A DNA stretch of 64,000 nucleotides from Anaerolineales bacterium (lineage in GTDB: Bacteria; Chloroflexota; Anaerolineae; Anaerolineales; UBA6663). Both the position numbers and the translations under genes were made by a program. This document shows, in pieces, positions 4,556 to 62,692 of the stretch. Below the pieces are notes generated by a model. It was given only the letters and a program-made list of their open reading frames with translations. It did not search any database and was not told the DNA's origin. The stretch's first letter is position 1. Each line of letters begins with the position of its first letter. Location of the stretch: the NCBI GenBank assembly GCA_044224715.1, contig JBGAJV010000001.1:38186-102185 (forward strand). The letters run 5' to 3'.

Positions 4556-5766
4556 CCGGTAAACCCGCGCGCGCCCGTCCGCCATCGAAGCGCTGGCTGG
4601 CCTGGATCGGCGGCGGTGTCGGTGTTCTGTTGGTGTTGTGCGTTGGTATCGGCGCTGGCGGCTGGTTGGCCATCCGGCAACGTTATACCGACACACCCGA
4701 CACGCATGACCTTGACGCGCGGCTGGCGACACTGGTCCAGACGTATCTGGCGCGACGCCCGCACGGTGCGGTGGTGGTCGGGGTCGTGCAGCAAAATCGA
4801 ACGGCGATCTTCGGGTACGGCAAGCTGCCTGAAGGCGCCGCGCCCCTCGCCGACACCGAATACGAGATCGGGTCGTTGAGCAAGGTTTTCACCGCCCTGC
4901 TCTTGGCCGACATGGTCGCGCGCGGGGACGTCGCTACGACCGATATGCTCGGCGATCTGCGCCCACGGCCGTCCGACACCTACGACGCCGAGACCCGCTC
5001 GGCGCCGGCCGTGTCCGTGATCACGCTCGGGCAACTCGCCACGCACACCTCGGGACTTCCTCGGCTGCCCGCCGGACTGACCGACGCCGAACTCGGCAGC
5101 GCGAACCCATATGCCGCGTATGACCTCGATCGACTCTGGCAGGACCTCGACTCCGCACAGCTCGAGAACGCGCCAGGCGTCGCGTATGGGTACTCGAACT
5201 TCGGCGCCGGAGTGTTGGGCCAGGTGTTGGCCCAACACGCCGGGTTGCCGTACGATGCGTTGATCACCGAACGGATCCTGACGCCACTCGGTCTGAGCGA
5301 CACGGTGCTCGCGCTCACCGCTGATCAGCACACGCGCTTGGCGCCGGGCTTCGTCCTTGACGCCGATGTGTCGGCCACAAACTGGGACCTCAATGCGCTG
5401 GCGCCGGCGGGCGGTTTCAAATCGACGGCACGGGACCTGACGGCCTTCATCGCCGCAAACCTGCTCGTCGGACAGAGTGAGCGCCCGATCGACCGCGCTT
5501 TGGTCGAGTCGCACAAAATCCTGCACAAGGGGTTCGACCAGAGCCTGGCCTATGGCTGGATCGTTCAGGATCAACTCTGGGGCCAGCGCGTCTACTGGCA
5601 CAACGGCGGCACGGGCGGTTACACCAGCTACCTGGCGATCGACTTCGACCACGACGCCGGGATCGTGATCCTCTCCAACTACGGCGACACACTCGCAGGC
5701 AACAGCGATCTCGATGGGTTGGGTCTGGCGGCCCTGCCCCTGATCTCGCGGATATCTCTGCCCTAG
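4552..5766 (+). CDS. Membrane-anchored serine hydrolase of the beta-lactamase/class C (PBP4*-like) family
   Basis: ATG 4552 overlaps the previous stop (ATGA). N-terminal TM segment WLAWIGGGVGVLLVLCVGIGAGGW. SxxK motif SLSKVF and YxN motif YSNFG. Confidence 0.85.
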   Translation: MTGKPARARPPSKRWLAWIGGGVGVLLVLCVGIGAGGWLAIRQRYTDTPDTHDLDARLATLVQTYLARRPHGAVVVGVVQQNRTAIFGYGKLPEGAAPLADTEYEIGSLSKVFTALLLADMVARGDVATTDMLGDLRPRPSDTYDAETRSAPAVSVITLGQLATHTSGLPRLPAGLTDAELGSANPYAAYDLDRLWQDLDSAQLENAPGVAYGYSNFGAGVLGQVLAQHAGLPYDALITERILTPLGLSDTVLALTADQHTRLAPGFVLDADVSATNWDLNALAPAGGFKSTARDLTAFIAANLLVGQSERPIDRALVESHKILHKGFDQSLAYGWIVQDQLWGQRVYWHNGGTGGYTSYLAIDFDHDAGIVILSNYGDTLAGNSDLDGLGLAALPLISRISLP

Positions 5767-5775
5767 CTCACGGCC

Positions 5776-8424
5776 ATGCGCTGCAACGACTTCGATCTGA
5801 CCCACAACCTCGACGGACTCTGGCGCTTCCGACTTGGCGACGGCGCCGAGCGCGACGTCGTCGTGCCGGGCGCCTGGGAGGCCGCGACGGGCGACTTTCT
5901 CACCGACGGCCCGGCGGTGTATGCCCGCGACGTGATCCTCGGGCCGGAATGGGCCGGTCGCCGGATCTGGATCGAGTTCGACGCGGTCAGCTTCGCCATC
6001 GACGTATATGTGAACGACGTTCTGACCGGCACGCATCGCGGGATGTGGTCGCCGTTTCAATTCGATCTCACCCCGCACTGGGTCGCCGGCGCCAATCGCC
6101 TCCGCCTGGAGGTCTGGAAGCCGGGCGCCCGCTACCCGGTGCGCGAGGCGCTGGCCGGCTTTCTGCCCGACGTGTGCACGACGTTCGGCGGGCTCTGGCA
6201 ATCCGTGCGGCTGCGCGGCGCCGCGCCGGATACGCCCGGCTTCGACGACCTGTGCTGGACCGTGAGCGCCAACGGCTCGGCGCAGGTGAGCGGGTCCGTG
6301 TCAGAGCCGGTGCCGCCCGGCGCCCGGCTCACGCTGACGATCGGCAACCGCTCGTCGGTCGTCGATTTGGGCCACGCCGGCGGCCGCTTCGCGCTGACGC
6401 TCCGGGGCGCAATCCGCCGTCGCTACGGCCCATCGGCGCCGCGCCTGACGACGGCGATGCTCTTGCTCGAGGCGCCGGAGGGCGCCGAACTGGCGCGTGT
6501 CAGCCGACGCCTTGGCCGCCGCTGGTTCGAGGCCCGCGGCGCCGAGCTGCGCCTCAACGGAACGCCGGCGCACCTGCGTGGCGTGCTGGATTGGGGCTGG
6601 AACCCGACGACCGTGTGCCCGCGCTACGTGGATGCCGACGCGCAATTCGCGCGCGCGCGCGAACTGGGCTTCAACCTGTTCAAGTGTTGTCTCTACGTGC
6701 CGGACGAGGCCTTCCTCGACGCCGCGGACGCAGCGGGGATGTGGCTCTGGTTGGAGATGCCGCTGTGGCTCCCGGCAGTCACGCCGGCGCTCGAAGCATT
6801 GGCGTTGGCCGAATACGAGGCCGTGTTCAGGCGGTTGCATCATCATCCGTGCATCGCGGTCGTCACGCTCGGGTGCGAGCTGAACCACGCGAGCGGCGTC
6901 GACTTCCTGCGGGCGCTCGACTCCCTGGCGCGCCGCTACTTCCCGGGCGCCCTCATCGGCGACAACTCGGGGTCGGCCGAGGCGTACGGCGGCGTGCGCG
7001 CCGACCTGGGCGACGTGATCGACTACCATTTCTACGCGGACCCGCATTTCTTCGGCCCGTTGATCGATCACTTCGACCGCAACTATCGACGGGCCCGACC
7101 GTGGTTGTACGGCGAATTCTGCGACGCCGACACGCTGCGCGATTTCGCGACGGCCCGCGACGCGTGGTGGCTCACTTCCCAGACGACGCTTGAGCGCGAC
7201 GACTTCCTCGCCCAGCGAGACCATGCGTCCCGTTTCAAGGCCGCCGAGGTCCGCGATGGCGGCGCCGCCCTGACCTTCATCGGGCGCAGGCAGGCGACGG
7301 CCATCCGCAAACACATCCTCGAGCGCGTGCGCCGCCACGCCCCGACGGGCGGCTATGTCGTCACCGGCTGGCGCGACACGCCGATCACGACCTCGGGCCT
7401 GATCGACGACGGCCTCGCGCACAAGTTCTCGCCCGACGTCTGGCGGAGGTTCAATGCCGACCGGGTGCTGAGCCTCGATCGTGATCGACGGCGCTTATGG
7501 GCCGGCGGCGATCGCCCAAGCCCACGCGAGCCGTATGTCTTCTGGTCGCGCGAGATTGCCGAGCTTCACGTCGTCATGTCCAATGCCGGCGGCCCGGCCG
7601 CGGCCGGTCGGTTGAATTGGTCACTGATCGACGAACACGGCGGTGTTGTTCGATCCGGCGAGTCGGTGACGACGCCGGTTGCAGCCGGTGAATCGCGCGA
7701 ACTATGCGTGCTCGATCTCGCCCTGCCCGCGGTGACGCGACCGACCGCGACCACGCTGGCCGTTCGCTGGCTCGGCGCCAGCCCGGCGACACAGACGTGT
7801 GAAAACGCCTGGCGGCTGCTGACCCTCCCTCGCCCGGCGTTGCCGGGCGTCGTAGCCGTGGAGGGACTGCACGCGCATCGGGCCGCGCTTCAGGCGCTTT
7901 GGCCAACGACGGCGTTCGTGGGGCTGATGGAGGCTCCGGCGACAGCGCCGCTCCTGACCGACTCGGCCCGCGTTCAGTTCGGCACGCTGCTGCAGCAAGG
8001 GCGTCGGATCCTGCTCTGGCTGACCGAACCGGACCCACGCCTGACATCGCTGCGACCGTTCTGGCGGGAGGCCATTCATCAGGCGGATTTCGTCGCGCTG
8101 GGTCTGCCCGCGCTGGATCATGCCGATCTCACAATGCACGGCGTCGCGACCGATCAGGCGTTGCGAATCGAAGGCGTGGGCACCGTACTGCGCGCGACGG
8201 ATCTCCGGGTCGCCGCGCGACCGTGGCGTCGATTCGATGCCCGTCAGCTCGATTGGCGCGACTATTGGTTGGACCTTGTATCGGGCTCGGGCCGCTGCGC
8301 GGTCACGACGCTGCGCCTCGCGGGTGGGCATGGCGATCAACCGGCCGGGCTCACCACCAACCCCGTCGGCGTCTGGCTGCTCGCGCACGGGCTGAACTCA
8401 CCAGCCACTGGGCCGACCGATTGA
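5776..8424 (+). CDS. Glycoside hydrolase family 2-like protein (no signal peptide)
   Basis: The N-terminal sugar-binding pattern IWIEFDAVSFAIDVYVNDVLTGTHRGMWSPFQFDLTPHWVAGANRLRLEV is typical of GH2. It is followed by a TIM-barrel-like region (GFNLFKCCLYVPDEAFLDAADAAGMWLWLEMPLW). Confidence 0.7.
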   Translation: MRCNDFDLTHNLDGLWRFRLGDGAERDVVVPGAWEAATGDFLTDGPAVYARDVILGPEWAGRRIWIEFDAVSFAIDVYVNDVLTGTHRGMWSPFQFDLTPHWVAGANRLRLEVWKPGARYPVREALAGFLPDVCTTFGGLWQSVRLRGAAPDTPGFDDLCWTVSANGSAQVSGSVSEPVPPGARLTLTIGNRSSVVDLGHAGGRFALTLRGAIRRRYGPSAPRLTTAMLLLEAPEGAELARVSRRLGRRWFEARGAELRLNGTPAHLRGVLDWGWNPTTVCPRYVDADAQFARARELGFNLFKCCLYVPDEAFLDAADAAGMWLWLEMPLWLPAVTPALEALALAEYEAVFRRLHHHPCIAVVTLGCELNHASGVDFLRALDSLARRYFPGALIGDNSGSAEAYGGVRADLGDVIDYHFYADPHFFGPLIDHFDRNYRRARPWLYGEFCDADTLRDFATARDAWWLTSQTTLERDDFLAQRDHASRFKAAEVRDGGAALTFIGRRQATAIRKHILERVRRHAPTGGYVVTGWRDTPITTSGLIDDGLAHKFSPDVWRRFNADRVLSLDRDRRRLWAGGDRPSPREPYVFWSREIAELHVVMSNAGGPAAAGRLNWSLIDEHGGVVRSGESVTTPVAAGESRELCVLDLALPAVTRPTATTLAVRWLGASPATQTCENAWRLLTLPRPALPGVVAVEGLHAHRAALQALWPTTAFVGLMEAPATAPLLTDSARVQFGTLLQQGRRILLWLTEPDPRLTSLRPFWREAIHQADFVALGLPALDHADLTMHGVATDQALRIEGVGTVLRATDLRVAARPWRRFDARQLDWRDYWLDLVSGSGRCAVTTLRLAGGHGDQPAGLTTNPVGVWLLAHGLNSPATGPTD

Positions 8425-8569
8425 TGCCCTCAGACAGCCATCCATTCATCCGCTGATCCGTTGCGGGGGTCGTGGTTGGACCACCCGACCGGCGGGGTTC
8501 GCCGACTGATGCCGAGGTCGTGCGCGCCTGCCTCGCGCGACGCCGTCGGCCGGCGCGCCGACCTTCAGG

Positions 8570-8575
8570 TAGAAT
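8570..8575 (+). promoter_or_regulatory. -10 hexamer TAGAAT exactly 6 nt upstream of the map start codon (leaderless geometry)
   Basis: caggTAGAATttcaacGTG, with no Shine-Dalgarno between hexamer and start. Confidence 0.4.
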
Positions 8576-8581
8576 TTCAAC

Positions 8582-9373
8582 GTGTTCACGCGTAACCAAC
8601 CCCCAGGTATTTCACTCAAGCGCCCTGAAGAGATCGCCGCCATGCGCGAGTCGGGTCGCCTCGTGGCTCAGGCGTTCGAGCTGATGCGCGGCATCGTCGT
8701 GCCGGGCGCCCGTCTCTCCGACATCGACGACGCCGTGGCGGCCTTCCTGGCCGAGCGCGGCGCGCAGCCGCTGTACAAGGGCTATCGGGGCAACCCGCCG
8801 AGCCATCCGCCTTTTCCGGGCGTCATATGCGCTTCGGTCAACCACGAGATCTGTCATGGCTTGCCCGACAAGCGTCGGTTAAAAGAGGGCGACATCGTCG
8901 GCATCGATATCGGGCTGAAGTACAACGACTTCTGCGGCGATGCCTGCGTGACGTTTCCGGTGGGCGCGGTCGCGCCTGAGGTGGAACGCCTGCTGAAGAT
9001 TACGCGCGAGTGTCTGGATAAGGGGATCCAGGCCGCTCAGCCGGGCCGGCATCTCACCGACATCGGCGCCATGATCCAACTGCACGCCGAGGCGAACGGG
9101 TGCAGCGTGGTGCGCGAATGGGGCGGCCACGGCATCGGCCGCAACCTGCACGAGCCGCCGCACGTGTCGCACATCGGCCCGGGCGGCCGCGGCCCGAAGC
9201 TGCGCCCGGGTATGGTGTTCACGATCGAGCCGATGATCAACGCCGGCGCGCCAGAATGGCAATTGCTCGCCGACGGGTGGACCGTGGTCACGAGCGATGG
9301 TCGACTCTCCGCTCAGTACGAGCACACCATCGCGATCACGGAGACCGGCGTCGAAGTGCTGACGGTCCTGTAA
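8582..9373 (+). CDS. map: Type I methionine aminopeptidase
   Basis: LKRPEEIAAMRESGRLVAQ, FPGVICASVNHEICHG, GDIVGIDIG, EWGGHGIG and TIEPMI are the classic Map metal-ligand blocks. GTG start. Confidence 0.95.
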   Translation: MFTRNQPPGISLKRPEEIAAMRESGRLVAQAFELMRGIVVPGARLSDIDDAVAAFLAERGAQPLYKGYRGNPPSHPPFPGVICASVNHEICHGLPDKRRLKEGDIVGIDIGLKYNDFCGDACVTFPVGAVAPEVERLLKITRECLDKGIQAAQPGRHLTDIGAMIQLHAEANGCSVVREWGGHGIGRNLHEPPHVSHIGPGGRGPKLRPGMVFTIEPMINAGAPEWQLLADGWTVVTSDGRLSAQYEHTIAITETGVEVLTVL

Positions 9374-56522: not shown

Positions 56523-57563
56523 ATGAAAGCAGTGTTGTATTCCGAGTTCAAATCGATGCCGCGCGTGGAGTCTGTGCCGGATCCGATTCCGCCGGCGGAT
56601 GGCGTGGTGGTGCGGGTACGCGCGACGGGGCTGTGCCGCAGCGACTGGCACGGCTGGCAGGGCCACGACTCCGACATCCAGACGCTGCCGCATGTGCCGG
56701 GCCACGAACTGGCCGGCGAGATCGTGGCCGTCGGCGCGGACGTGCGCGGCTGGCATGTCGGCGAGCGCGTGACCACGCCGTTCGTGCTCGCCTGCGGCGC
56801 CTGTCGGTCCTGTCTGAGCGGCGATCAGCAGGTGTGTGAGCGTCAATGGCAACCCGGCTTTCACGCCTGGGGCTCGTTCGCCGAATTCGTGGCGCTGCCG
56901 CATGCGGCCGGCAATCTCGTGCGCCTGCCCGACGACCTGGGCTTCGCCGAGGCCGCCGTGCTCGGCTGCCGCTTTGCCACGAGCTTTCGCGGCCTGACGG
57001 GTCGCGGACGCGTTCAAGGCGGCGAGTGGGTGGTCGTGATCGGGTGCGGCGGCGTCGGTCTGTCGGCCGTGATGATCGCGACGGCGCTGGGCGGTCACGT
57101 CATCGGCGTCGACCTGGACCCGGCGCGGCTGGCTCTGGCCCGGCTGTTGGGCGCCGTGCACGTTCTCGATGCCGGCGCCGTCGACGACGTGCCCGGGGCG
57201 GTCAAGACCCTCACGGATGGCGGCGCGCATGTGTCGATCGATGCCCTCGGCAGCGCCCGCACCTGCCGCGACGCCGTCCTCAGCCTGCGCCGCCGCGGGC
57301 GCCACGTGCAGATCGGGCTCCTGGCCGGCGACCAGGCCAACCCGCCGGTGCCGATGGGCGCCGTGATCGCGCACGAGCTCGACGTGCTCGGCAGCCACGG
57401 CATGGCCGCACACGCCTACCCCGACATGCTACGGCTGATCACCAGCGGTCGCTTGCCCGTCGCGCAACTGATCGGCGCGCGCATCGGGCTCGACGCCGCC
57501 GGACCGGCGTTGGCGGCCATGGATCGCTTCCCGGGCACGGGTGTGACCATCATCGAGCCGTGA
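56523..57563 (+). CDS. Zinc-dependent alcohol dehydrogenase (MDR family)
   Basis: GLCRSDWHGWQG and GHELAGEIVAVG. Structural-zinc cysteines CGACRSCLSGDQQVC. Rossmann motif VVIGCGGVGLS. Confidence 0.9.
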   Translation: MKAVLYSEFKSMPRVESVPDPIPPADGVVVRVRATGLCRSDWHGWQGHDSDIQTLPHVPGHELAGEIVAVGADVRGWHVGERVTTPFVLACGACRSCLSGDQQVCERQWQPGFHAWGSFAEFVALPHAAGNLVRLPDDLGFAEAAVLGCRFATSFRGLTGRGRVQGGEWVVVIGCGGVGLSAVMIATALGGHVIGVDLDPARLALARLLGAVHVLDAGAVDDVPGAVKTLTDGGAHVSIDALGSARTCRDAVLSLRRRGRHVQIGLLAGDQANPPVPMGAVIAHELDVLGSHGMAAHAYPDMLRLITSGRLPVAQLIGARIGLDAAGPALAAMDRFPGTGVTIIEP

Positions 57564-57602
57564 CATCGGGGCACATCGGGACACTCCCGGTGTGTCCCGA
57601 TG

Positions 57603-58118
57603 TCAGATCAAGGCCGCAATGGCAGTCGCCAGCCCCGCGAGGAGCAGGCTGACGAGCGTGATACCGACGAAGCCTTTGAGAAACCCGCGAAAGTGGAAGC
57701 CGTAGAACCGGCGGTTGTAGAGCGCCTCGGCGCCGCGCACGAGCACGAAGCGCGGTCGCCAGGTCTCGACGATCAGCCAGTCGACGATGAGCAGGTCGAT
57801 CACGTTGAACGACTGCAACGCGATCCAGATCGCGGCCGCGATCGGCCAGAACCCCGGAAAGCCGCACTGCCCGGCGATCACGCGCCAGATCAATAGACCG
57901 AGCGAACCGAAGATGATGGCGAACATCACAACCGCCACCCACACGGTCTGACGCTTCGCCAGCGCGCTCTTGGGCGGCAGCACGGCCTGAACTTCCGACG
58001 GGTAGTCGTGGACCCAGATCTCGGGGTTCCAGCGCAGGCTCACGATCACCAGGATGCTCAGCAGCATGCTGAGGATCACGCCCATCACCAGACTGTCCAA
58101 GACGATCGTGTTCCACAT
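57603..58118 (-). CDS. Integral membrane protein (171 aa), unknown function, last gene of the feo transcription unit
   Basis: Four or five hydrophobic segments, 27 nt downstream of the feoB permease gene. No family recognised. Confidence 0.55.
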   Translation of the reverse strand: MWNTIVLDSLVMGVILSMLLSILVIVSLRWNPEIWVHDYPSEVQAVLPPKSALAKRQTVWVAVVMFAIIFGSLGLLIWRVIAGQCGFPGFWPIAAAIWIALQSFNVIDLLIVDWLIVETWRPRFVLVRGAEALYNRRFYGFHFRGFLKGFVGITLVSLLLAGLATAIAALI

Positions 58119-58145
58119 GGTCGGGTCTCCAGGCGGCCTCTGGCC

Positions 58146-59546
58146 TCACGCCCAACCCAACAGGCGCGCGCCGGCCGCGACCAGGAAGCACACCACAAAG
58201 GCCAGGACCAGCGGTCCGAGCGCGCCGAGCGTCGTCCATTTGAGGCTGCGGGTCTCCTTCCACATCGTCATGATCGTCGTGGCGCACGGGTTGTGCAGCA
58301 ACGAGAACAGCATCAGATTGACGGCCGTCAGCGTCGTCCAGCTGTACTGGCCGACTAGGAGCGTGTGCATGTCCGAATAGGCCGGCAGATCCGTCATCAT
58401 CCCCGCGCCCAGGTACATCATCATCATGGTCGGCACCACGATCTCGTTGGCCGGGATCGCGATGATGTAGGCCAGCAGGATGACGCCGTCCAGACCGATG
58501 GCATTGCCGAGCGGTTTGAGCGCGTTGGCGACGTGCCAGGCCAGCGACGTGTCGCCGACGTAGATGTTGGCGAGCAGCCAGATCGCGGCGCCGGCGGGCG
58601 CGGCGGTCTGGATCGCGCGCCACAGGACGAAGATCGTCCGATCGATCAGCGACGTGTACAGGATCTGGCGCAGGTTCGGGCGGCGGAACGGCGGCAGCTC
58701 GAGCGAGAACGCCGACGCCTCGCCGCGCAAGAGTGTGCGCGACAGCAACCCCGAGATCACCAGCGTGAAGATGATGCCGATCACGACCACGGTCACGACC
58801 GACCCGGCCGCGACGACCGAGGTCAGCGCCGCCGGAAAGCTGGCGGCCACAAAGACCGTCGCCAGCATGATCAAGGTCGGGAAGCGGCCATTGCACGGGA
58901 CGAAATTGTTGGTCAGGATTGCGATCAGGCGCTCGCGCGGACTGTCGATGACCCGCGTGGCGATGATGCCGGCCGCGTTACAGCCGAAGCCCATGGCCAT
59001 CGTCAGCGACTGCTTGCCATGGGCGCCGGCCTTCTTGAAGAGCCAGTCCATGTTGAAGGCCACACGCGGCAGGTAGCCCAGGTCCTCAAGGAACGTGAAG
59101 CAGGGGAAGAAGATGGCCATCGGCGGCAGCATCACACTGATCACCCAGGCCAGGCTGCGAAAGACGCCGTCCCAGATAAAGCCGGTCAGCCACCAGGGCG
59201 CGCCAAGCGCCGTGAAGAGCGCGGCGCCCTGCGCCTCGACCCAGAACAAGGCCTGGGCCAGCATGGCCGAAGGCACGTTGGCGCCCGTGATCGTGAGCCA
59301 GAAGACGAGTGCCAGGATGGCGAGCATCAGGGGCAGCCCGAAGATCGGCGAGGTCAGCAAGCGGTCGACCGTGGTGTCCCAGGTCCAACGGCGCTGGCTG
59401 CCTTGCTGCACGGCCTTCGAGGCCATGCCTTCGGCCTCGCGATACAGCGACTGCACCAACGTGTCGCGGAAGTCGCCGGGGAGGGTCTGACGCAATTGAT
59501 CGGCCTGCGCCAGGAGGCGTTCGGCGGGGGTGGCGGTGGTGGTCAT
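58146..59546 (-). CDS. feoB: FeoB permease (membrane/gate) domain encoded as a separate gene
   Basis: VDRLLTSPIFGLPLMLAILALVFWLTI... followed by about 8 TM segments, with the FeoB gate-type blocks (GLDGVILLAYIIAIPANEIVVP). Confidence 0.85.
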   Translation of the reverse strand: MTTTATPAERLLAQADQLRQTLPGDFRDTLVQSLYREAEGMASKAVQQGSQRRWTWDTTVDRLLTSPIFGLPLMLAILALVFWLTITGANVPSAMLAQALFWVEAQGAALFTALGAPWWLTGFIWDGVFRSLAWVISVMLPPMAIFFPCFTFLEDLGYLPRVAFNMDWLFKKAGAHGKQSLTMAMGFGCNAAGIIATRVIDSPRERLIAILTNNFVPCNGRFPTLIMLATVFVAASFPAALTSVVAAGSVVTVVVIGIIFTLVISGLLSRTLLRGEASAFSLELPPFRRPNLRQILYTSLIDRTIFVLWRAIQTAAPAGAAIWLLANIYVGDTSLAWHVANALKPLGNAIGLDGVILLAYIIAIPANEIVVPTMMMMYLGAGMMTDLPAYSDMHTLLVGQYSWTTLTAVNLMLFSLLHNPCATTIMTMWKETRSLKWTTLGALGPLVLAFVVCFLVAAGARLLGWA

Positions 59547-59625
59547 GGCTTTACCTGCTACTGAGTTGACGCCAACGCGACTGGATGCCCTTCGCTGTTC
59601 AGTCGTGCGCGCCGATGGGCGATGC

Positions 59626-59645
59626 GGGCGACCAGAGGGTCGCTC
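59626..59645. repeat. GC hairpin (GGGCGACC-agag-GGTCGCTC) of the GGGCGNCC...CCTAC family in the gap between the two feoB genes
   Basis: The minus strand reads CAG TAG GAG CGA CCC TCT GGT CGC CCG, so the TAG stop of the FeoB G-domain gene is part of the element. Confidence 0.6.
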
Positions 59646-60458
59646 CTACTGAGCCCCTTGCAACGCGATCTTGCGGCTGAACCCGCGCACGGCCTGACGC
59701 TGACGGGCCGCGATCTCGGTCAATTCGCCGCTCAAGAGCGCCTGGCGGATGCGCAGGTCGCCATCGAGCAACCGCAGTGCGACCCAGCGCGGGTTGGGCA
59801 GGCCCGGCGCCGCCTGGTCGATCAGCGGCAACAGATCGCTGATGGCGGTCTCGAGCGCCGGCTGCGCTTTGACGCGTTTGGGTTGGACGACAACCTGATC
59901 GGTGACGATGTCGCGAACCGCGCCGAGGATGTCGCCCAGGCCTTCGCCGCTGCGGGCCGCGGCCGCGACGACCGGCACGCCGAGGTCGCGCGCGAGCGCC
60001 CGCACGTCGACGGCGATGTTCTTGCGGCGAGCCTCGTCCATCAGATTGACAACCACGACGGCGCGATCCGTAATCTCGAGCACCTGTAACACCAGGTTGA
60101 GGTTGCGCTCGAGACAGGTGGCGTCGTTCACGACGACAGTGCAGTCGGGCTGGCCGAACAGGATGAAGTTGCGCGCGATCTCCTCGTCTTGCGAGGCCGA
60201 CAGCAGTGAATACGTGCCCGGCAGGTCGACGAGCTTGTAGCGTTTGTTCTGGAACTGATAACCGCCTTCGGCACGCGTCACCGTCTTGCCGGGCCAGTTG
60301 CCCGTGTGCTGGCGCAGACCGGTCAGCGCGTTAAACACCGTGCTCTTGCCGGTGTTGGGGTTGCCGGCCAGCGCGATGAGATAGTCGAAGTTGCTGACGT
60401 CGACGCCCATCTGGGCCAGAGAGGCGTTCGCCGGACAGGTGGCGCAATCTTCAGTCAT
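59646..60458 (-). CDS. feoB: FeoB N-terminal GTPase + helical domain encoded as a separate gene (270 aa)
   Basis: G1 is GNPNTGKST, G3 is DLPGTYSL, G4 is NLMDEA. There is a 25-aa N-terminal extension containing CATCP. Confidence 0.9.
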   Translation of the reverse strand: MTEDCATCPANASLAQMGVDVSNFDYLIALAGNPNTGKSTVFNALTGLRQHTGNWPGKTVTRAEGGYQFQNKRYKLVDLPGTYSLLSASQDEEIARNFILFGQPDCTVVVNDATCLERNLNLVLQVLEITDRAVVVVNLMDEARRKNIAVDVRALARDLGVPVVAAAARSGEGLGDILGAVRDIVTDQVVVQPKRVKAQPALETAISDLLPLIDQAAPGLPNPRWVALRLLDGDLRIRQALLSGELTEIAARQRQAVRGFSRKIALQGAQ

Positions 60459-60460
60459 GG

Positions 60461-61513
60461 TCAGGCTCCTTGCGGCACAGCCGCATCATTGACCGCGGCG
60501 TCCGCGTCGTTGATCAAGACATGTTCGGCCTGGTCGCGCCGTAGAGCGATCAGGGTGCCGCGCACGCGATAGGCCACCGGGTCGCCCAGCATGCTTGGCA
60601 GCTCGGCCGTGATGCGCGCGCCCGGCGTCAGGCCGAGGTCGAGCAAGCGGCGCCGCGTGAAGCCCTGCAGGCCCTGATCGAGCGCGCCGACCTGGGCGGT
60701 CTCGCCGCGCTTGAGCGCCGTCAGCCGTCGCGACGTCTGTGCGCTCACGGCGGGCGCCTCGGCGACGAAGATGTTGGCGGCCAGCACCGGCGCCAGCGCG
60801 AAGGTTTTGTGCCCATCCGAGAGCATCAAGCGCTGCGGCGAGGCTTCCACCACGCGTACGACCTGACCGGGCCGCAGCCCCTCGGCCGCGATCTGGGCGA
60901 AGACGGCCGGAGGTTCGTCCTCGAGGTGAACGACCAACGCCGGCTGCCCGGTCGGCCAATCGGTGAGCGGCCGCGATTCGACTCGCGCCATCTCGCCGCG
61001 GACGGTCGGGATCGGGTCGCCGTGCGGGTCCGTCGTCGGGTGGCCGAGCAGGATCTCGAGCGCGGCGAGCTTGGACGCATCGGCGTCATGTTCGCGGCGC
61101 TCGGCCTCGGCGTGCACGTCGGCCAGCGGCATGCGCGCCTCGTCGACCAGATAGCGTTCCCACAGTCGGTGGGCGCGGATCACGCCAAGCGCCAATTGCT
61201 CGCCCTCGGGCGTCAATCGAAACCCGCCGGCGGCCGAGCGGATCAGGCCGCGGCTTTCCAGGCGCCGCACGAGTGCCACCGCGCGTCGGCTGGGCACGCC
61301 AAGCGCGCCGGCCAGGCCTTCGAGAGTGGCCGGCCGCCCGCCGCGCCATTCGCGCGCGTGGATGAACTTGAGGGCGTCCTCGGCCAGGTGGCGGTCGCGC
61401 TCGTCGCGCCAGCGCCGCCCGATGGCCAGCCCGCCGATGCGCGGGACGAACAGCCACACGCCCACAGCCAGGGCGACGACGAACAGTGCAACACTCAACT
61501 CAGCCATAGCCAC
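60461..61513 (-). CDS. Membrane-anchored DtxR/MntR-family protein fused to two FeoA (SH3-like) domains
   Basis: N-terminal hydrophobic helix ELSVALFVVALAVGVWLFV. wHTH region LAGALGVPSRRAVALVRRLESRGLI. Metal-site pattern HRLWERYL...DVHAEAERREH...DPHGDPIP. Two FeoA-like segments follow (LTDWPTGQPALVVHLED...GLRPGQVVRVVE and LTALKRGETAQVGALDQG...GLTPGARITAE). Start is GTG 61513 or ATG 61507. Confidence 0.8.
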   Translation of the reverse strand: MAMAELSVALFVVALAVGVWLFVPRIGGLAIGRRWRDERDRHLAEDALKFIHAREWRGGRPATLEGLAGALGVPSRRAVALVRRLESRGLIRSAAGGFRLTPEGEQLALGVIRAHRLWERYLVDEARMPLADVHAEAERREHDADASKLAALEILLGHPTTDPHGDPIPTVRGEMARVESRPLTDWPTGQPALVVHLEDEPPAVFAQIAAEGLRPGQVVRVVEASPQRLMLSDGHKTFALAPVLAANIFVAEAPAVSAQTSRRLTALKRGETAQVGALDQGLQGFTRRRLLDLGLTPGARITAELPSMLGDPVAYRVRGTLIALRRDQAEHVLINDADAAVNDAAVPQGA

Positions 61514-61514
61514 C

Positions 61515-62177
61515 TCACCGCTCTCGCGCTTCGACGAACACGTGATCCGTGATCGTGCGATCCAGCTCCTGCTCGCGGTCGCCGACCAGCACGGCCAGGG
61601 GACCGCCCGTCGGCGCGCGCATCACCCGGAGCGGCGCGCGCAACACGAGGCCGAGCTCCGTCAGACGCGCGAGAAAGTGTGCGTCCTCGTCGTGGACCCG
61701 CGCGACGTAGACCGTCTCGCCGGCGGCCACGGCGCTCAGCGCACGCCGGCAGGGTTCGGCGACCTGGCCCTCCCGCGTCGGGATCGGGTCGCCGTGCGGG
61801 TCGTGGCCCGGGTTGCCCAGGGCCGCCGCGATCTTGTCTTCGAACTCCTCCGAGATGACGTGCTCCAGTCGCTCGGCCTCGGCATGCACTTCATGCCAGC
61901 CGTAGCCGAGGGCCTCGGCCAGGTAGAGCTCGATCAGGCGATGGTGTCGGATCACCTCGAGCGCGATCTTGCGCCCGGCTTCGGTCAGCGCCACGCCGCG
62001 ATGACGTTCGTAATCCACCAGCGGCGGTTGCATCCGGGCGAGCTTCTGCACCATTTCGGTCACCGAGGCCGGCGCCACGGCCAGCCGTTCGGCCAGCGCC
62101 GAGGTGGTCACGCGGCCCGAGTCCTCGAGGAGCTCGTAGATCGCCTTCAAATAGTCTTCGGTGTTCGAACTCAGCAT
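61515..62177 (-). CDS. DtxR/IdeR/MntR-family metal-dependent repressor with C-terminal SH3-like domain
   Basis: Start ATG 62177 (MLSSNTEDYLKAIYELLE) with AGGAG SD. HHRLIELYL...EVHAEAERLEH...DPHGDPIP. Confidence 0.85.
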   Translation of the reverse strand: MLSSNTEDYLKAIYELLEDSGRVTTSALAERLAVAPASVTEMVQKLARMQPPLVDYERHRGVALTEAGRKIALEVIRHHRLIELYLAEALGYGWHEVHAEAERLEHVISEEFEDKIAAALGNPGHDPHGDPIPTREGQVAEPCRRALSAVAAGETVYVARVHDEDAHFLARLTELGLVLRAPLRVMRAPTGGPLAVLVGDREQELDRTITDHVFVEARER

Positions 62178-62186
62178 ACACTCCTC

Positions 62187-62202
62187 TTTAGGCTGGCCTA
62201 AA
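62187..62202. promoter_or_regulatory. DtxR-family-like palindromic operator (TTTAGGCT|GGCCTAAA); a second imperfect site lies at 62217-62235
   Basis: 7/8 symmetric half-sites of type TTAGG, immediately upstream of the SD of the dtxR-like gene. The second site is ATTTTAGGTTTGCCGAAAT. Confidence 0.5.
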
Positions 62203-62327
62203 TACAAGGGGACTATATTTTAGGTTTGCCGAAATGTCAACCGCTCTTACCTTGGACCTGTCAGGTCCATCCAGGATTCTCGAGTTTTCAAGGCGATCCA
62301 AAGAACGACAACTGTCGCGATTCTAAC

Positions 62328-62356
62328 TTGACGGACCCACAGAAGAGTCCTAATAT
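62328..62356 (+). promoter_or_regulatory. Sigma-70-type promoter: -35 TTGACG, 17-bp spacer, -10 TAATAT, 6 nt before ATG 62363 (leaderless geometry)
   Basis: TTGACGgacccacagaagagtccTAATATctgaatATG, read directly. Confidence 0.55.
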
Positions 62357-62376
62357 CTGAATATGTACTCAGATGT
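62353..62376. promoter_or_regulatory. Imperfect 10-4-10 inverted repeat (ATATCTGAAT-atgt-ACTCAGATGT) spanning the -10/start codon; candidate ArsR/SmtB operator
   Basis: 8/10 symmetric positions. TCTGA/TCAGA cores resemble the TGAA...TTCAGA-type operators I recall for SmtB/CzrA-like repressors. Confidence 0.4.
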
Positions 62377-62692
62377 TCAGCCGACAATACCCGTTCCCGC
62401 GCGACGCCTGGACGAAACCGAGGCGCTCTCGTTGGCCGAATTGTTTCGCGCCCTTGGCGACGCCAGCCGCGTGCGCATCCTGACCGCCCTGCTCTCTGGC
62501 GAGCACAACGTCGGCGAACTCGCCGATCAGGCGGCCATCAGCGAGAGTGCGGTGTCGCACCACCTGCGCGGTTTACGGCTGATGCGGCTGGTCCGCGCCG
62601 ACAAGCGTGGCCGGGCTGTCTATTACGCCCTGGCCGATGAGCACGTGCGCGTCCTGTTGCAGCAAGGCCTGGATCACGTCCGCCACGGTTGA
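62363..62692 (+). CDS. ArsR/SmtB-family metalloregulator (alpha5-site type)
   Basis: LAELFRALGDASRVRILTAL and the HTH NVGELADQAAISESAVSHHLRGLR. The C-terminal DEHVRVLLQQGLDHVRH fits the DxHx10Hx2H alpha5 metal site. Confidence 0.9.
   Translation: MYSDVQPTIPVPARRLDETEALSLAELFRALGDASRVRILTALLSGEHNVGELADQAAISESAVSHHLRGLRLMRLVRADKRGRAVYYALADEHVRVLLQQGLDHVRHG

Follow-up and report, generated by a model that had tools for sequence, protein, structure and literature searches.

The DNA considered here, which we call the window, is a stretch of 64,000 nucleotides (nt) from an Anaerolineales bacterium (assembly GCA_044224715.1, contig JBGAJV010000001.1), and our subject is a minus-strand operon of five genes in it, ORF1 to ORF5 (ORF, open reading frame). 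Taken as a whole, our best explanation, which we hold to be somewhat probable, is that this operon is intact, is transcribed from one promoter and encodes a FeoB-family divalent-metal importer of the class represented by PgMntR and FeoB2 of Porphyromonas gingivalis. The window operon is typical of a widespread and essentially unstudied variant of that class, with a membrane anchor on the DtxR-type protein that carries an extra FeoA domain (ORF2), FeoB made from two genes (ORF3 and ORF4), and sometimes a separate canonical repressor (ORF1). Judging from comparisons of sequences across related loci, ORF2 could well be a metal sensor or subunit bound to the transporter.

Genes of the operon

A preliminary description of the window, made from the letters alone, had listed five minus-strand genes with their gaps, domains and metal ligands, and our analysis found all of them at the positions claimed:

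61515-62177, minus strand: ORF1, canonical three-domain DtxR/MntR-type repressor, 220 amino acids (aa)
60461-61507 from an ATG (348 aa) or to 61513 from a GTG (350 aa), minus strand: ORF2, anchored PgMntR-type protein, DtxR core plus extra FeoA
59646-60458, minus strand: ORF3, stand-alone FeoB G-domain plus helical guanine-nucleotide dissociation inhibitor (GDI) domain, 270 aa
59547-59645, minus strand: feoB spacer between ORF3 and ORF4, non-coding, 99 nt
58146-59546, minus strand: ORF4, FeoB permease, 466 aa
57603-58118, minus strand: ORF5, lineage-specific membrane protein, 171 aa, last gene of the operon

The gap between ORF1 and ORF2 is 1 nt if ORF2 is read from the GTG at 61513 and 7 nt if it is read from the ATG at 61507, which is the start chosen by gene callers; ORF2 and ORF3 are 2 nt apart, ORF3 and ORF4 99 nt, and ORF4 and ORF5 27 nt. 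No further promoter, terminator or Rfam element was found in the interior of the operon (Rfam scan including the leader, E<=1). The closest relatives of the operon are in Anaerolineales metagenome-assembled genomes (MAGs). One relative, L001 (90% identical), has about 720 nt with stop codons between its ORF1 and ORF2 homologues (about 4930-5650 of that locus), compared with 1-7 nt in the window.

The fusion protein and its fold

Pfam matched Fe_dep_repr_C (PF02742, 3.5e-22) and two stretches of FeoA (PF04023, 2.3e-25) in ORF2, and the N-terminal helix-turn-helix (HTH) model was not matched at E<=0.01. We take the winged helix-turn-helix (wHTH) of ORF2 to be real despite this, because its alignment with DR2539 and with the 5zr4 repressor begins at residue 43/44 and because the AlphaFold2 model of the protein superposes on known repressors. 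The profile hidden Markov model search that had been suggested for this protein thus recovered the dimerisation domain and both FeoA stretches and failed to recover the N-terminal HTH.

The AlphaFold2 model, built with 83 homologues (predicted local distance difference test score 90.6, predicted template-modelling score 0.80), has a helix at residues 2-20, a break at PRIGG, a long basic helix at 26-56 that runs into the wHTH, a recognition helix at 73-85, a wing at 89-98, dimerisation helices at 100-153, and SH3-like beta-domains at 189-250 and 270-334. Residues ~43-250 superpose on whole Mn-dependent repressors with template-modelling scores of 0.89-0.93 (5zr6 at 1.6-2.0 Å). The core is 41% identical to DR2539 at a template-modelling score of 0.9, and the model also superposes on DNA-bound IdeR and DR2539. 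The parts of ORF2 are the following:

61448-61504, minus strand: residues 2-20, transmembrane-type helix, Kyte-Doolittle 2.51 over 19 residues, helix 2-20 in the AlphaFold2 model
61385-61432, minus strand: residues 26-41, basic juxtamembrane helix LAxWRRxRxxRxR, conserved, continuous with wHTH helix 1
61211-61384, minus strand: residues 42-99, wHTH with highly conserved helices H1 and H2 and a variable recognition helix (73-85)
60983-61210, minus strand: residues 100-175, dimerisation and metal-binding domain with DPHGDPIP, the PF02742 match (3.5e-22)
60758-60952, minus strand: residues 186-250, SH3-like domain 1 with a HLEDEP motif, the native third domain of DtxR
60503-60721, minus strand: residues 263-335, the added FeoA domain (FeoA2), with Pfam FeoA and PDB matches

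The PDB matches of FeoA2 are 2k5f (6.5e-8) and Bacteroides fragilis FeoA, 7r7b (1e-5). The preliminary description spoke of two FeoA modules. There are two SH3-like domains, but the first belongs to the DtxR fold itself and is present in ORF1 too, so just one FeoA has been added to ORF2. The metal ligands of the 350-aa protein had been described as intact-looking, and this held up: the H-x3-E ... H-x3-E-x2-E-H pattern is present, and the columns H113, E117, H132, E139 and H140 in the 348-aa numbering (H115, E119, H134, E141 and H142 in the 350-aa numbering) are invariant across homologues. Position 136 (348-aa numbering) is Glu or Asp across homologues, and D44 with E/D136 completes the primary site.

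Distribution and relation to PgMntR

The DtxR core with two FeoA/SH3-like domains, seen both in the PF02742 match with two PF04023 stretches and in the AlphaFold2 model, is the twin-FeoA layout, and on this layout and shared motifs we place ORF2 in the twin-FeoA DtxR subfamily founded by PgMntR. ORF2 matched >5,272 clusters, among which Planctomycetota members also occur, and there are at least 599 loci of the ORF2 type in GTDB species representatives, spread over Chloroflexota, Acidobacteriota, Bacteroidota, Ignavibacteria, Gemmatimonadota, Verrucomicrobiota, Calditrichota and Actinomycetota. A separate canonical repressor is present at about one third of the related loci.

PgMntR (PG1044) was characterised in vitro in 2016; it shares an operon with the Mn2+ transporter FeoB2 (PG1043) and binds Mn(II) and also Fe(II) (PMC4805248). 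The published alignment of its homologues includes proteins from Roseiflexus, Anaerolinea, Ignavibacterium and Melioribacter (PMC4805248); the same taxa are among the ORF2 matches, and the motifs RAHRLWERYLAD, HxEDEP and RRRLLDLG are common to ORF2 and these homologues. The Anaerolinea homologue is described in S1 Fig of that paper as 'truncated at residue 359', so it is longer than the norm and may bear a further fused domain.

Like ORF2, PgMntR has a wHTH, a dimerisation/metal domain, an SH3-like domain and a second, C-terminal FeoA. Unlike ORF2 it has no hydrophobic helix, and its primary site is of the Asp/Cys (mixed Mn/Fe) type, where ORF2 has Asp/Glu. FeoB2 is referred to as a single transporter with no sign of a split, and no separate canonical DtxR gene is mentioned in the P. 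gingivalis operon (PMC4805248). The possibility had been raised that this architecture would turn out to be already common and characterised. It is common and PgMntR is characterised, but PgMntR is without the anchor and nothing indicates a split of FeoB2. We found no paper that reports the membrane anchor, the lack of a stand-alone feoA or, relative to the canonical partner repressor, the relaxed constraint on the DNA-reading helix of ORF2.

Promoter, operators and the ORF1 repressor

Upstream of ORF1 we found a strong match to a sigma-70-type promoter and two operator-like palindromes, one on each side of the -10 element:

62212-62240, minus strand: sigma-70-type promoter, TTGACA, 17-nt spacer, TATAGT, 11/12 consensus matches
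62219-62234, minus-strand sequence TTTCGGCAAACCTAAA: operator-like palindrome 2, which fills the -35/-10 spacer, 2 mismatches to TTTAGGCNNGCCTAAA
62187-62202, strand not assigned: operator-like palindrome 1, perfect, TTTAGGC-CA-GCCTAAA, between the -10 element and the Shine-Dalgarno

In the whole window, just these two palindromes of the TTTAGGC-NN-GCCTAAA type occur, vs 0.03 expected by chance. The promoter hexamers and both palindromes are kept in L001 while the DNA around them diverges. The TTTAG-N6-CTAAA layout is common to the window palindromes and to the crystallised DR2539 operator ATTTTAGTCGCGCCTAAAAT, which is the dr1709 operator.

ORF1 matches Fe_dep_repress (PF01325, 1.9e-20) and Fe_dep_repr_C (PF02742, 2e-30), both above the gathering cut-offs, and FeoA at 1e-13. 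Its best NCBIfam match is the Thermus-type MntR model NF047407 at 220 bits, under the equivalog cut-off of 350, and on these scores ORF1 is a DtxR/MntR family member and not an equivalog of any named regulator. The closest PDB matches are 5zr4 (4e-43) and DR2539 (9e-41), and the aligned ligands are D8, H79, E83, H98, E102, E105 and H106 (DtxR positions 10, 79, 83, 98, 102, 105 and 106). The recognition helix of ORF1, APASVT, is conserved across phyla and agrees with the DR2539 helix at P-A-S-V-T. ORF1 looks like a Mn-sensor-like repressor, and palindromes placed around the -10 element are as expected for metal-dependent autorepression.

Substrate metal

The preliminary description called this an iron-uptake operon, which is an assumption; the ligand types, the nearest structures, the operator and the pairing of PgMntR with FeoB2 lean towards Mn. 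In both ORF1 and ORF2, Asp stands at the equivalent of DtxR M10 and Glu at the equivalent of C102, a pair that is treated as Mn-specifying in the PgMntR study (PMC4805248). The nearest structures of both regulators are Mn repressors, and the operator layout is like that of the Mn sensor DR2539. We consider Mn2+ to be at least as likely a substrate as Fe2+, because of the Asp/Glu ligand pair and because FeoB2 is a Mn transporter, and in our analysis Mn2+ comes out as slightly the more likely of the two.

A classical ferrous-iron Feo importer, with both regulators responsive to Fe2+, is a plausible alternative, if a somewhat less probable one. The transporter domains are all of the FeoB type, feoB is the NCBIfam model that scores best, and the gate cysteines of canonical FeoB are retained in the permease. 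Ligands alone are an unreliable guide to metal specificity, PgMntR itself binds Fe(II) besides Mn(II) (PMC4805248), and the related MAGs include some from anoxic sources (bioreactor sludge), where Fe2+ would be available. These points count against Mn2+ as the substrate. On the other hand, the primary site of the regulators is Asp/Glu/Glu/His and not the Met/Cys type of DtxR, the NCBIfam models as well as the nearest structures are those of Mn sensors, and the sole experimentally studied transporter paired with this type of regulator carries Mn (PMC4805248).

Role of the fusion protein

We propose ORF2 as a transporter-bound sensor because of the position of its gene, the lack of any other FeoA, the arrangement in one unfused locus, the relaxed conservation of its recognition helix, and the known contact between FeoA and the N-terminal G-domain of FeoB (NFeoB). 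Wherever a twin-FeoA locus has enough sequence to tell, the gene immediately before the G-domain gene is that of the fusion protein. No stand-alone feoA was found in the window, and none within +-8 kb of about 75 related loci, except for one unfused case, so FeoA2 is the only FeoA available to the transporter at the locus. A FeoA, or a domain like it, is reported to be present in all Feo systems. The earlier suggestion that the FeoA modules serve the transporter thus gains indirect support from the invariable adjacency to the G-domain gene and from the lack of a stand-alone feoA. The further idea in that description, that a single molecule would read both the state of the transporter and the cytosolic metal, stays conjectural.

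The unfused case is L068 (Actinomycetospora chlora, 8001-8990). It has a DtxR that has no transmembrane helix and has a canonical recognition helix (SSVSGMLRKL), a separate 102-codon frame with the FeoA2 module alone, and then a split feoB. This arrangement may be the ancestral state or a frameshifted fusion.

We compared the recognition helices of ORF1-like and ORF2-like proteins in 25 genomes that carry both, where the two sets are equally diverged (mean identity 0.405 vs 0.409). The entropy of the recognition helix is 2.43 bits in ORF2-like proteins and 1.65 bits in their ORF1-like partners, and at the DNA-reading positions the values are 2.6-3.1 bits vs 0.8-0.9 bits. The dimer helix, H1 and H2 are more conserved in the ORF2-like proteins than in the partners. 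The net charge of the recognition segment is <=0 in 47% of ORF2-like members, vs 8% of partners. The recognition helix of ORF2-like proteins is equally variable at loci without a nearby partner repressor, an observation that does not discriminate between the possible roles.

FeoA contacts NFeoB and stabilises its GTP-bound form (PMC8980893). In the mechanism that we envisage, ORF2 would sit at the membrane as a dimeric metal sensor and its FeoA2 would dock on the FeoB GTPase, as free FeoA does elsewhere. Metal occupancy of the DtxR core would alter the FeoA2-GTPase contact, and import would be throttled post-translationally once cytosolic metal suffices, with ORF1 handling transcriptional repression. 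Going further, we suggest tentatively that the ORF2 class is a DtxR fold repurposed as an anchored metal-sensing FeoB subunit, with a FeoA module and a FeoC-like winged helix, and that Mn2+/Fe2+ gates the GTPase and permease allosterically while the canonical paralogue acts on DNA. Transporter and DNA-binding roles of ORF2 are not mutually exclusive.

Several observations weigh against a transporter-bound sensor. The only characterised member of the subfamily, PgMntR, binds its own promoter in an electrophoretic mobility shift assay (PMC4805248). In 37/75 loci there is no canonical DtxR within +-8 kb, so the fusion might be the sole local regulator there. The recognition helix of the window ORF2 is Arg-rich with a net charge of +4, and relaxed conservation of the recognition helix in the class could reflect co-evolving operators and not lost DNA reading.

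These observations fit a different role, that of a membrane-tethered metal-dependent repressor like PgMntR, which would act alone or with ORF1 and in which the extra FeoA would aid the fold or DNA binding. That this is mainly what ORF2 does we consider rather unlikely. It agrees with the loss of both DNA and Mn binding when FeoA2 is removed from PgMntR (PMC4805248), with the complete and confidently modelled wHTH that superposes on DNA-bound repressors, and with the presence of two operators, so that each DtxR paralogue could take one. Against it, the DNA-reading positions of the class are nearly unconstrained in the same genomes in which those of the partner are tightly conserved, the transmembrane helix and wHTH helix 1 are only ~22 residues apart, so that DNA would have little space between protein and membrane, and both operators suit the half-site expected for the DR2539-like helix of ORF1. 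A tethered repressor also leaves unexplained the invariable link to the G-domain gene and the lack of any other FeoA.

Membrane anchor

The membrane anchor claimed for ORF2 in the preliminary description stands, on the hydropathy, the modelled helix, the related loci and the lack of a downstream start. A transmembrane-like helix, defined as an N-terminal segment with Kyte-Doolittle >=1.6 over 19 residues, is present in 79/120 homologues, and in these it is followed by a conserved basic stretch, PRxGLLALWRRxRxxRxR. Among the genome loci that could be evaluated, about 60/65 have the helix, and it is absent from canonical DtxR controls. Its hydrophobicity is conserved while its sequence is free (entropy 2.73 bits). 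The acidic N-terminus and the basic C-terminal flank of the helix imply an N-out/C-in topology.

Such an anchor is not found in PgMntR, whose DNA-binding domain begins at residue 13 after a short N-terminus with no hydrophobic helix; the word "transmembrane" is absent from the PgMntR paper, and an anchor in homologues is never mentioned there (PMC4805248). No paper on a membrane-anchored DtxR-FeoA protein was found in a literature search that did not cover subscription-only reviews.

It is very unlikely that the N-terminal helix is a start-codon artefact or a cleaved signal peptide. The segment is missing in 34/120 homologues, mostly Planctomycetota, with short variants retaining the basic part (WWKRLR...), and its absence there and in PgMntR is a point in favour of such a reading. 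However, there is no start codon between the helix and the wHTH, the gene callers of independent assemblies include the helix, and it is kept across phyla. Its charges, acidic or neutral at the N-terminus and strongly basic just downstream, are those of a signal anchor (N-out/C-in) rather than a Sec signal peptide, and exporting a DtxR fold whose partners are cytosolic would be pointless.

FeoB encoded by two genes

ORF3 matches FeoB_N (5e-58, profile positions 3-153 of 156) and FeoB_Cyto (8e-8), contains the motifs GNPNTGKS (G1), DLPG (G3) and NLMD (G4), and has AAGGAG upstream of its start. ORF4 matches Gate (PF07670) twice (3e-25) and FeoB_C (PF07664, 6e-13), retains both gate-motif cysteines (GFGCNAAG and HNPCATT), and has its own AGG-type ribosome-binding site and ATG start. 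In the full-length model TIGR00437, ORF4 covers positions 212-594, and each FeoB half scores ~192 bits vs the cut-off of 315.65.

Among 67 related loci with both halves, feoB is split in 43 and a single ORF in the other 24. These counts come from the locus survey; the lengths of G-domain proteins among 1.8 billion representatives are too blurred by contig-edge fragments. In 33 of the split loci, from many phyla, the halves are in different frames, often with ATGA overlaps, and in every lineage the break is at the same boundary between domains. Relatives with a G-protein 93-95% identical and a permease 90-91% identical to those of the window end the first gene at the same residue, 270, with TGA or TAG stops, unrelated spacers of 79-149 nt that contain stops, and frame offsets of 1 or 2. 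Between the window and L001, the spacer differs by indels of +1, +13 and +1 nt, and two assemblies built from independent SRA runs have the same junction. We consider the split genuine because of these split counts, the indels that are not triplets, the unrelated spacers of relatives, the identical junction and the constant boundary. On this comparison of sequences, it is an ancestral and recurrent gene organisation. The preliminary description had likewise favoured a real two-gene FeoB over a decayed gene.

One detail absent from that description is that ORF3 and ORF4 are in one frame, with a single TAG and 33 open codons between them. This shared frame proved coincidental. That a single feoB has instead been interrupted by a nonsense mutation (TAG) or an assembly error, perhaps with readthrough, is hardly credible: the window and L001 both have the TAG and the halves in one frame, and the 99-nt spacer of the window is open, but near relatives have TGA or TAG stops, other spacers and other frames, the spacer has changed by non-triplet lengths, ORF4 has its own translation signals, both halves are under strong purifying selection, and 33 open codons are unremarkable in DNA of 67% GC, the composition of the window. 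Comparison of related loci thus rules out a nonsense mutation or readthrough. The indels that had been thought worth looking for at the junction would have restored a single feoB; the junction is reproduced exactly in both independent SRA assemblies, which rules out an assembly error. Our literature search, which did not extend to subscription-only reviews, found no paper on a split FeoB.

The spacer has no Rfam match (E<=1) and no promoter or terminator match. It has a 6-bp hairpin, GCGACC-CTCT-GGTCGC, at 59628-59643 (-), 3 nt past the TAG of ORF3, which has no T-run and so is not a terminator. The hairpin is kept in L001 with one A-T pair changed to a T-G pair, and through it the two feoB halves might be tuned relative to each other in translation or stability. 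The spacer of L001 also has a tandem repeat, GAACAGC x4 (about 7555-7585), that accounts for the 13-nt length difference. Separately, six close homologues of ORF3 (P0127, P0138, P0161, P0164, P0174 and P0176) measure 350-380 aa, and their G-domain does not begin until residue ~93-146; such proteins may be fusions of FeoA with NFeoB that have no permease, which would be another distribution of the Feo modules.

ORF5 and flanking genes

ORF5 had been described as a membrane protein of no known family, and we agree: it has about four hydrophobic segments and no Pfam or NCBIfam match. Its family is small (18 clusters) and uniform in length at about 171 aa. In relatives at 55% identity the homologue is 12 nt downstream of the permease gene, and in our locus survey ORF5 was absent from the operon loci of other phyla. 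We rejected ORF5 as a universal component of the system, as it is found in close Anaerolineales relatives only, with one distant homologue elsewhere; by this distribution it is a lineage-specific addition. The distant homologue (L089, 1036-2009; 42% identical) is not beside feoB; it overlaps a zf_CopZ (PF18423) gene at the latter's start, a hint that this family may have a broader role connected with metals.

On the promoter side, the operon is flanked by a divergent ArsR/SmtB-type regulator at 62363-62692 (+) and then, from 62706 and past the end of the window, by a heavy-metal ATPase of the P1B type that has an HMA domain. The importer operon and this pair share an intergenic region of ~185 bp, in which there is a plus-strand promoter-like site at 62328-62356. 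The back-to-back order of importer and exporter is kept in two relatives (L085 and L087). On the other flank are a convergent Zn-dependent alcohol dehydrogenase and then a DinB-type polymerase gene on the minus strand. Three long frames of 247-448 aa, at 57550-58896 (-), 58365-59564 (+) and 60809-61552 (+), are not genes; they are Arg/Gly/Asp-rich shadow ORFs of a kind typical of 67% GC DNA.

Comparison with known systems

Bacterial metal transport still poses the questions of what FeoA is for and how the pore is controlled by the FeoB GTPase. In the class described here, a metal sensor has FeoA wired into it, and GTPase and pore are made as separate polypeptides, so that the components can be expressed individually and the idea of FeoA as a signal relay is directly testable. 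If ORF2 is a repurposed FeoB subunit, then FeoA, whose function has long been debated, would act as an adaptor that brings signals into the FeoB GTPase. The class, which spans at least 8 phyla and thousands of protein clusters, has been overlooked. These operons are routinely labelled 'ferrous iron transport', yet the regulators here look Mn-type, and Mn uptake may go unrecognised in some genomes of Chloroflexota, Acidobacteriota, Bacteroidota and others.

The canonical FeoA/FeoB(/FeoC) systems of Escherichia coli and Vibrio cholerae share with the window a G-domain with G1-G5, a helical GDI domain, a permease with two Gate motifs and FeoB_C, and an SH3-like FeoA. In the window, by contrast, FeoB is in two genes, FeoA is not free but is the C-terminus of an anchored metal sensor, regulation is of the DtxR/MntR type, and Mn2+ may be the substrate. 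FeoC, a small protein with a winged helix, binds NFeoB, and because ORF2 has both a winged helix and a FeoA module, it holds analogues of both FeoA and FeoC. No Pfam match to the FeoC family was found in any of the five proteins, the wHTH of ORF2 is of the DtxR type, and a FeoC-like role for it is speculation.

The FeoAB fusion of B. fragilis (7R7B, PMC8980893) is like the window in that FeoA is covalently tethered, and there FeoA makes a nucleotide-dependent contact with the G-domain that stabilises the GTP-bound state. It differs in that FeoA is joined to FeoB itself, whereas here it is joined to a DtxR-type sensor. The accompanying survey of FeoA fusions explicitly removed FeoA-DtxR architectures (PMC8980893), and the main paper on Feo evolution mentions neither DtxR nor split FeoB.

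Among solved structures, the DR2539 and 5ZR4/5ZR6 repressors are the closest relatives of ORF1 and of the ORF2 core, and the APASVT helix is shared with ORF1. Unlike ORF2, these repressors are soluble, with a single SH3-like domain and no extra FeoA, and DR2539 controls a Nramp transporter where the window has FeoB.

ToxR, CadC and TcpP have an N-terminal cytoplasmic OmpR-type wHTH, then a transmembrane helix and then a periplasmic sensor domain. ORF2 resembles them in principle only, as a winged helix held at the cytoplasmic membrane by a single transmembrane helix. In ORF2, however, that helix comes first, hardly anything lies in the periplasm, the sensor is in the cytosol, and the fold is that of DtxR.

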